A DNA stretch of 64,000 bases, taken from the NCBI RefSeq assembly GCF_013122565.1, contig NZ_CP053258.1. One strand, given 5' to 3'. The stretch comes from Escherichia coli. Its GTDB lineage: Bacteria > Pseudomonadota > Gammaproteobacteria > Enterobacterales > Enterobacteriaceae. The translations under genes and the position numbers were made by a program. How positions within the stretch are numbered: position 1 is the stretch's first letter; the number at the start of each line of letters is the position of its first letter. Under the pieces are notes generated by a model that was not told the DNA's origin, made no database searches, and was given only the letters and a program-made list of their open reading frames with translations. This document shows, in pieces, positions 20,234 to 20,251 of this stretch.

Positions 20234-20251
20234 AGCTAATAAATATTAGCT
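20234..20251. promoter_or_regulatory. Inverted repeat AGCTAATA-AA-TATTAGCT in the divergent promoter between the hydrolase/transporter genes and the LacI-family gene; candidate operator
   Basis: Perfect 8-bp arms read directly from the sequence; its function is inference. Confidence 0.35.

Follow-up and report, generated by a model that had tools for sequence, protein, structure and literature searches.

Genes of the locus

The window, a 64,000-nucleotide stretch of Escherichia coli DNA, carries an accessory locus that was found in 6 of 5,426 complete E. coli genomes and is flanked by the hipBA/autotransporter region and by tcuRABC. A literature search for the three RefSeq protein accessions of the locus found no mention of them. 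On the minus strand, positions 19122–20207 encode a GH5-like hydrolase of 361 aa, which RefSeq names 'cellulase family glycosylhydrolase' and which matches the Pfam Cellulase/GH5 model weakly (PF00150, E 4e-7, 30 bits). The protein has the motifs LYNEP and CTEW and no N-terminal signal-like hydrophobic stretch; it gave no PDB sequence match at E ≤ 0.01 and no NCBIfam match. Its Shine-Dalgarno sequence, AGAGGA (20214–20219, minus strand), can be read directly 6 nt ahead of the ATG. The second gene of the operon begins 50 bp after the hydrolase gene and encodes a GPH-family glycoside:cation symporter of 471 aa (17656–19071, minus strand; Pfam MFS_2, E 2e-60; NCBIfam TIGR00792, 308 bits with a cutoff of 231). 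The hydrolase looks like a member of an uncharacterised family of cytoplasmic glycosidases that is paired with a GPH symporter.

Divergently transcribed from this operon, the plus strand encodes a LacI-family regulator of 335 aa (20393–21400) with the recognition helix SQATVSL and the atypical hinge GYDRLPAIHAPRNQ. Its domains are those of the family: Pfam LacI (PF00356) scores 53 bits, with a cutoff of 27, and Peripla_BP_3 and Peripla_BP_1 score 108 and 89. Sequence matches in the PDB include RbsR (the best, E 6e-35), CcpA, PurR and LacI. In all 17 NCBIfam matches the regulator falls far below the curated cutoff, the highest being RbsR (163 vs 382) and CytR (161.6 vs 436).

We also recorded several features of the surrounding DNA. 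Positions 12148–16910 (minus strand) hold a 1,195-aa open reading frame (ORF) next to a gene for a TibC-like heptosyltransferase of 386 aa (Pfam TibC_1st and Glyco_transf_9), which suggests a glycosylated autotransporter adhesin module; its counterpart in E. coli LHM10-1 is truncated, with an IS3 fragment adjoining the transporter gene. Close to the site of that fragment, a 220-aa ORF without a Pfam match (17246–17908, plus strand) partly overlaps the 3' end of the transporter gene on the opposite strand and is probably spurious. Beyond the regulator gene, a 96-bp stretch (21404–21500) matches ~50 other E. coli records at ~90% identity, and 38 of the matching places are plasmid-borne. Because this stretch is the tcuR upstream region, and tcuRABC is carried on IncFII plasmids, it marks a boundary between two separately mobile modules.

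A perfect palindrome in the divergent spacer

The GH5-like and LacI-family genes are separated by 185 bp (20208–20392). This spacer contains an inverted repeat at 20234–20251, AGCTAATAAATATTAGCT, in which two perfect 8-bp arms enclose a 2-nt AA spacer (AGCTAATA-AA-TATTAGCT). The initial annotation had reported the repeat and had described it as AT-rich and devoid of the central CG typical of LacI-family operators; the sequence bears this out on each point, the centre being AA. The symmetry extends imperfectly to arms of 16 nt (20226–20259). The palindrome lies 27–44 bp upstream of the GH5 ATG, with its centre at ~35 bp, in the range of 30–140 bp from the start codon that is typical of the family (PMC4052901). 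We call it O1, the predicted primary operator (no strand assigned); its 14-bp core, CTAATA-AA-TATTAG, occupies 20236–20249, and the prediction draws on the conservation and the alphaproteobacterial recurrence described below. In LHM10-1, the closest E. coli relative, G20252 of the window is replaced by A, and through this single SNP the perfect arms grow from 8 to 11 bp (TTTAGCTAATA-AA-TATTAGCTAAA).

We assessed how far the repeat stands out from chance. Perfect inverted repeats with 8-bp arms and a spacer of 0–6 number 16 in the window, compared with 8.5 ± 2.9 expected from Markov simulations, and the probability of at least one such repeat in a 185-bp spacer of the same composition is ~0.009. 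The improbability of the sequence on its own is modest, suggestive rather than compelling; the palindrome is significant because it is conserved.

Two other candidate sites in the window were rejected. A CG-centred imperfect palindrome at ~20306–20323 (TCATGCATCGATGAATCA), a more canonical form of LacI operator, shows no conservation outside the closest group of loci. A look-alike of the palindrome at 26955–26976 (ATAGCTAA-TGATTT-TTAGCTAT, PWM score 18.5) belongs to DNA that 4,910 of 5,426 E. coli genomes share, and nearly all of these genomes lack the regulator; a yneL-like HTH pseudogene lies on one side of it and a fimA fragment on the other.

Conservation in enterobacterial loci

We compared 17 enterobacterial loci, comprising 13 from a genome scan (L002–L014), three from an exact-protein fetch (L081–L083) and the E. 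coli window. Regulator identity in these loci is 57–99%, and the genera with regulator orthologs (57–94% identity) include Enterobacter, Salmonella, Leclercia, Lelliottia, Raoultella, Klebsiella, Cronobacter, Serratia, Rahnella, Kluyvera and Pseudocitrobacter, among others. The divergent GH5/regulator pair and the motif are kept in all 17, and the palindrome is the best-conserved part of the spacer. When 14 orthologous spacers were aligned, the mean column identity was 50%; 12 of the 18 palindrome positions were invariant vs 15 of 167 positions elsewhere (Fisher p 8e-8). The 27 invariant columns are concentrated in the block 20223–20248, which holds 18 of them in 26 columns, compared with 9 in the 159 columns elsewhere (Fisher p 1e-12). 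The palindrome was also found in the three loci beyond this alignment.

The symmetry is preserved together with the sequence. In Cronobacter, outer arm positions have changed symmetrically on both sides and the arms are still perfect (AACTAATA-AA-TATTAGTT). Half-site spacing at the main site is constant across the 17 loci, giving an 18-bp even palindrome with a 14-bp conserved core, and secondary sites have 3 nt instead of 4 between CTAAT and ATTAG. The centre is AA, AT or TT in every enterobacterial locus, and likewise in the alphaproteobacterial loci L029 and L035 described below, so that the central CG of LacI/GalR operators is absent throughout this set. On the protein side, the recognition helix GVSQATVSL is invariant among orthologs down to 57% identity, as would be expected if the operator is conserved.

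The conserved block can be read as alternating half-sites, [xTAATA]-w(w)-[TwTTAG][CTAATA]-ww-[TATTAG], of which the right-hand pair is the reported palindrome. The left-hand pair is a candidate second site, O2 (20222–20235, no strand assigned), a degenerate palindrome ATAATA-AT-GTTTAG that abuts O1 and has 3 mismatches to CTAATAwwTATTAG. The site at this position is perfect in L011 and L014 and takes the form of a 13-bp variant, CTAATA-T-TATTAG, in L007, L008 and L010. The O1/O2 junction TTAGCTAA (20232–20239) is invariant, as are T20223 and A20225–A20227 within O2 (14 spacers).

Recurrence of the motif beyond Enterobacterales

More distant homologs with the shared helix pattern were also recovered by the genome scan. 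In two alphaproteobacterial loci of 66% GC (L029 and L035), a perfect CTAATATTTATTAG lies ~15–20 bp upstream of a divergent GH2 gene, and weaker GCTAAT...TTAGC sites lie closer to the regulator gene. The regulators in these loci are 35–37% identical to that of the window, and a GH43 gene of L029 is preceded by a third perfect site. Alphaproteobacterial homologs with the CTAATA-WW-TATTAG unit have a regulator identity of 35–38% and have different sugar genes alongside. In L017, L018, L028 and L032, a variant of the motif, ACTAATAwTnATTAGT, is found just upstream of a NAD-epimerase/sugar-ABC operon; in L028 it lies on the sense strand between TTGACT and TATTAT. As the motif adjoins regulator homologs whose neighbouring sugar genes differ, it tracks the regulator and not GH5.

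We quantified this recurrence with a strict and a loose pattern. Perfect CTAAT-N3/4-ATTAG occurs 6 times in 27 alphaproteobacterial-type loci (223 kb) vs 0.037 expected, and 0 of 300 simulations reached 6; none was detected in 39 actinobacterial-type loci (328 kb). A loose half-site scan of the distant loci (≤1 mismatch, spacer 2–8) returned 16 hits vs 14.4 expected. This is no enrichment; only the strict pattern is informative. Many alphaproteobacterial homolog loci have no motif at ≤2 mismatches, and the link between motif and regulator is therefore limited to certain subgroups of the homologs.

Inferred promoter context of the GH5 operon

On the GH5 sense strand (minus), three candidate promoter elements can be placed relative to O1. 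A CRP-like site, CTTTGTGAGGGGAGTCTCTTTT (TGTGA-N6-TCTCT), occupies 20283–20304, and its centre at ~20293.5 would lie at ~−60.5 to −61.5 from the inferred start. Its TGTGA half (plus-strand TCACA, 20297–20301) is invariant; the distal half is weak, with 7–8 of 10 consensus matches overall. The inferred −35 element, TTGTGC (20263–20268), includes a TTG that is invariant in 14 loci (plus-strand CAA, 20266–20268). The inferred −10 element, TATTTA (20240–20245), is exactly central in O1 and sits 17 nt downstream of TTGnnn in the window, L002–L006 and L081–L083, and 15–17 nt downstream in the other loci. Each of the two hexamers has 3 of 6 consensus matches, and an alternative −10, TATTAT (the reverse complement of 20222–20227), would move the inferred transcription start. 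A scan of 20100–20500 for consensus sigma-70 promoters and terminators found nothing, and for this reason our promoter model is based on cross-species spacing rather than on consensus strength.

This spacing is tightly kept. From TTG to the CRP-like 22-mer the distance is a fixed 14 nt in 17 of 17 loci, and from the TTAGCTAA core to TCACA it is fixed at 63–65 bp across loci. The distances from the core to the GH5 ATG (27–52 bp) and from TCACA to the −10 of the regulator gene (28–76 bp) are variable. In every locus the order on the GH5 sense strand is the same: CRP-like site, 14 nt, TTGnnn, a 15–17-nt spacer, an AT-rich hexamer and the TTAGCTAA core. The arrangement fits a weak CRP-dependent GH5 promoter, with the CRP-like site at ~−61 and the −10/start region under the predicted operator, the layout of classic promoter occlusion. 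The regulator gene has a candidate −10 of its own, TATGAT (20361–20366, plus strand), which is conserved, reads TGnTATAGT in distant orthologs and varies in its distance from the operator block. It is ~120 bp from the operator and does not overlap it. No second operator was found near this −10 in the window, which for E. coli gives no indication of autoregulation.

A direct repeat, AAATG-CAC-AAATG (20258–20273), shares bases with the −35-like TTG. Conservation of this repeat is confined to the closest group of loci, where its counterparts are AAATGAGCAAATG in L002–L004 and the palindrome CATTTGAGCAAATG in L005.

The proposal of the initial annotation that the repeat may be a promoter element stands in part. 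The palindrome is centred on the best −10 candidate, its spacing to the TTG and the CRP-like site is fixed, and the L028 motif lies between TTGACT and TATTAT. These positions speak for a block that is only a core-promoter feature of GH5, of the regulator gene or of both, for example an AT-rich −10, a discriminator or UP-like DNA, with an incidental dyad and no dedicated repressor. We consider that explanation quite improbable. A −10 hexamer leaves the invariant flanking TTAGCTAAT and TATTA, over ~26 bp, unexplained, and the same is true of the symmetric double change in Cronobacter and of the 11-bp arms in L001. Moreover, the same 14-mer recurs beside regulator homologs in the 66%-GC alphaproteobacteria, among different promoters and genes. 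The palindrome probably overlaps the core promoter and is not solely a promoter element.

Regulator hinge and centre of the predicted operator

We next considered the absence of the central CG in relation to the regulator protein. In the compilation of Ravcheev et al. 2014 (PMC4052901), the centre is CG in 1,173 of 1,251 LacI-family motifs that form even palindromes, a different pair in 49 and degenerate in 29. By these counts a non-CG centre is uncommon but known, at ~6% of the family motifs. The strings CTAATA, TATTAG, GCTAAT and TTAGCTAA had no match in the supplementary text of that study. According to Schumacher et al. (PMC3074128), two contacts anchor the protein on DNA, Arg22 to Gua3 and the hinge Leu56 to the central CpG, and every characterised LacI-GalR protein that relies on hinge helices has kept this Leu.

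Both of these residues are replaced in the window regulator. Leu25 occupies the Arg22 position (SQATVSL vs SMATVSR in CcpA), and the column of the hinge Leu is an invariant His (His59 in the window regulator), accompanied by a 2-residue deletion and two prolines. In the operator, correspondingly, the half-site position that is G3 in cre is T, and WW stands at the centre instead of CpG. In the L018/L028 subgroup the hinge-Leu column holds Trp. HMMER alignments to solved LacI-family DNA-binding domains mostly end at residues 52–54, before the hinge. The lack of a central CG in the operator is likely to follow from the replacement of both anchoring residues in this subfamily (Arg22 to Leu, and hinge Leu to His in a hinge 2 residues shorter). 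The AT-rich centre could also reflect a constraint from −10 function rather than from the protein.

Actinobacterial homologs (L042–L064, Arthrobacter and related) offer a comparison. At 32–37% overall identity, they share with the window regulator an identical SQATVSL helix and the same operator length and register, and differ from it in having the canonical Leu hinge (YRTNAHAKVLR) and a CG centre. The CG-centred sequence GTTATnCGnATAAC lies 40–110 bp upstream of the regulator gene, with a second copy in most loci. In register, the half-sites read G-T-T-A-T-A-C|G in the actinobacterial group and C-T-A-A-T-A-W|W here; they have the same length and a different centre, and positions 2, 4, 5 and 6 (T, A, T, A) are common to both. 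The actinobacterial and proteobacterial groups alike have Leu at the Arg22 position and T, not G, at the matching DNA position. Each subgroup thus has its own form of the motif, GCTAATAwwTATTAGC with the His hinge, ACTAATA...ATTAGT with the Trp hinge and GTTATnCGnATAAC with the Leu hinge, so that the Leu hinge goes with a CG centre and the His or Trp hinge with a WW centre.

The actinobacterial sites also form a pattern of their own. In L042–L064 and L072 there is a conserved palindrome GTTATACGAATAAC upstream of the regulator gene, and in most of these loci a second copy, GTTATACGTATTAC, lies just downstream; the pair in L044 is at 3945–3958 and 5139–5152. We regard GTTATACGAATAAC and GTTATACGTATTAC as a clear predicted operator pair of the actinobacterial subfamily.

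We compared AlphaFold models of the window regulator and of an actinobacterial control, built from equally shallow alignments of 18 sequences each. Residues 50–65 of the window regulator were modelled as coil with no helix (pLDDT ~56 there, mean 70), and the control had a helix at 57–63 (pLDDT <50 there, mean 86). The difference in the modelled hinges agrees in direction with the hinge–operator correspondence and lends it weak support.

Taken together, these comparisons allow a tentative proposal, to which we give somewhat less than even odds. The regulator may represent a proteobacterial LacI/GalR subfamily that has lost both anchoring contacts (Arg22 to Leu; hinge Leu to His or Trp, in a shorter hinge with prolines) and reads AT-centred CTAATA-WW-TATTAG, probably without the Leu-driven CpG kink, while its actinobacterial sister group, with the same helix and an intact hinge Leu, would read the same register around CG. 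If true, the two groups would amount to a matched pair from nature, demonstrating that the operator centre is determined by the hinge, and the AT centre of the enterobacterial operator would double as a −10.

The initial annotation had taken the missing CG as a hint that a different factor might bind the repeat, and this is not supported by our results. The candidates would be an AT-binding nucleoid protein or another factor, for example the neighbouring LysR-type TcuR, and both the AT-richness of the site and the absence of the canonical LacI-family CG would suit such a protein. However, a regulator homolog is the only constant neighbour of the motif across gamma- and alphaproteobacteria, whatever the target genes, and the motif variants track the regulator subgroups with His, Trp and Leu hinges. 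TcuR in turn is part of the separate tcu module, which is also present on plasmids without the GH5/regulator locus. The adjacent regulator itself has neither of the residues that normally read the canonical operator features. We therefore consider binding by a different protein very improbable; from the co-occurrence of the motif and the loss of the canonical residues, the neighbouring LacI-family protein is the best candidate binder.

Proposed operator function

We conclude, with a probability of about 0.78, that the divergently encoded LacI-family repressor uses the palindrome as its operator, which would lie over the promoter of a putatively CRP-activated GH5/GPH operon. A repressor dimer would bind CTAATA-AA-TATTAG, and a second dimer may occupy the abutting weaker site at 20222–20235. 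The bound repressor would cover the −10/start region of the promoter of the GH5-hydrolase and GPH-transporter genes, and RNA polymerase would be excluded until a sugar inducer frees the repressor.

An inverted repeat at this position could also serve at the RNA level, as a 5'-leader hairpin that affects the stability or translation of the GH5 mRNA. In the predicted fold of the minus-strand RNA from 20262 to 20205 (−10.6 kcal/mol, z = −2.5), the palindrome forms a stem of 7 bp, and a further stem covers the Shine-Dalgarno sequence and AUG. We nevertheless consider this highly improbable. Compensatory changes occur in no pair: among the outer three pairs, all variation and loss of pairing comes from the right arm, and the inner pairs show no sequence change. 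The stem is a weak, all A-U/G-C-poor helix without an Rfam match, and the inferred promoter would start the transcript inside the palindrome. That the repeat is a functionless chance palindrome in AT-rich intergenic DNA is compatible with its probability of ~1% per spacer of such size and composition and with the 16 repeats in the window against ~8.5 expected, but is effectively refuted by its conservation (p 8e-8 to 1e-12) and its recurrence across classes (0 of 300 simulations).

Comparison with known LacI-family systems

We compared the predicted operator and its regulator with characterised members of the family. As in the E. coli lac system (LacI/lacO with CRP), a LacI-family repressor gene adjoins a sugar catabolic and transport operon, a palindrome overlaps the core promoter or start region (predicted here), and a CRP-like site is present, centred here ~61 bp upstream of the inferred start. 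Unlike lacO, the operator CTAATA-WW-TATTAG has neither a central CG nor a TGTGAGC-type half-site, and unlike LacI, the 335-aa regulator has no C-terminal tetramerisation extension and has an atypical hinge; the relation to LacI is at the family level (E 3e-23). The resemblance to CcpA-cre and PurR (PMC3074128) lies in the HTH-loop-helix module, with helices predicted at residues 9–16, 20–27 and 37–49, and in half-sites of 7 nt that share the register and build an even palindrome. The differences from them are Leu25 for Arg22, His59 for the hinge Leu56, the 2-residue deletion and the two prolines.

With the non-CG LacI-family motifs of RegPrecise (PMC4052901), the predicted operator shares an even palindrome, a non-CG central pair, a local sugar regulon and a site near the gene start. 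CytR is similar in being a LacI-family protein with a non-canonical operator architecture, a CRP partner (putative here) and some flexibility in half-site spacing (3 or 4 nt here). However, CytR recognizes octamer repeats with widely variable spacing and works by anti-activation through contacts with CRP, whereas here a tight palindrome lies over the candidate −10 and the CRP-like site is ~50 bp away.

The finding is most likely the operator of an uncharacterised LacI subfamily that is variant in its AT centre and His hinge and would otherwise take part in ordinary gene control. Our general understanding of the control of such operons is unchanged. For annotation, GCTAATA-WW-TATTAGC provides a specific predicted operator, and a starting point for defining the regulon, of an unnamed LacI subfamily of Enterobacterales and alphaproteobacteria, which is now linked to an uncharacterised operon of a cytoplasmic GH5-like hydrolase and a GPH transporter. 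Scans for LacI operators that demand a central CG would miss AT-centred sites of this kind. The pairing of the hinge residue (Leu, His or Trp) with the centre and flank of the operator may serve as a natural experiment on how the hinge controls the central base step.
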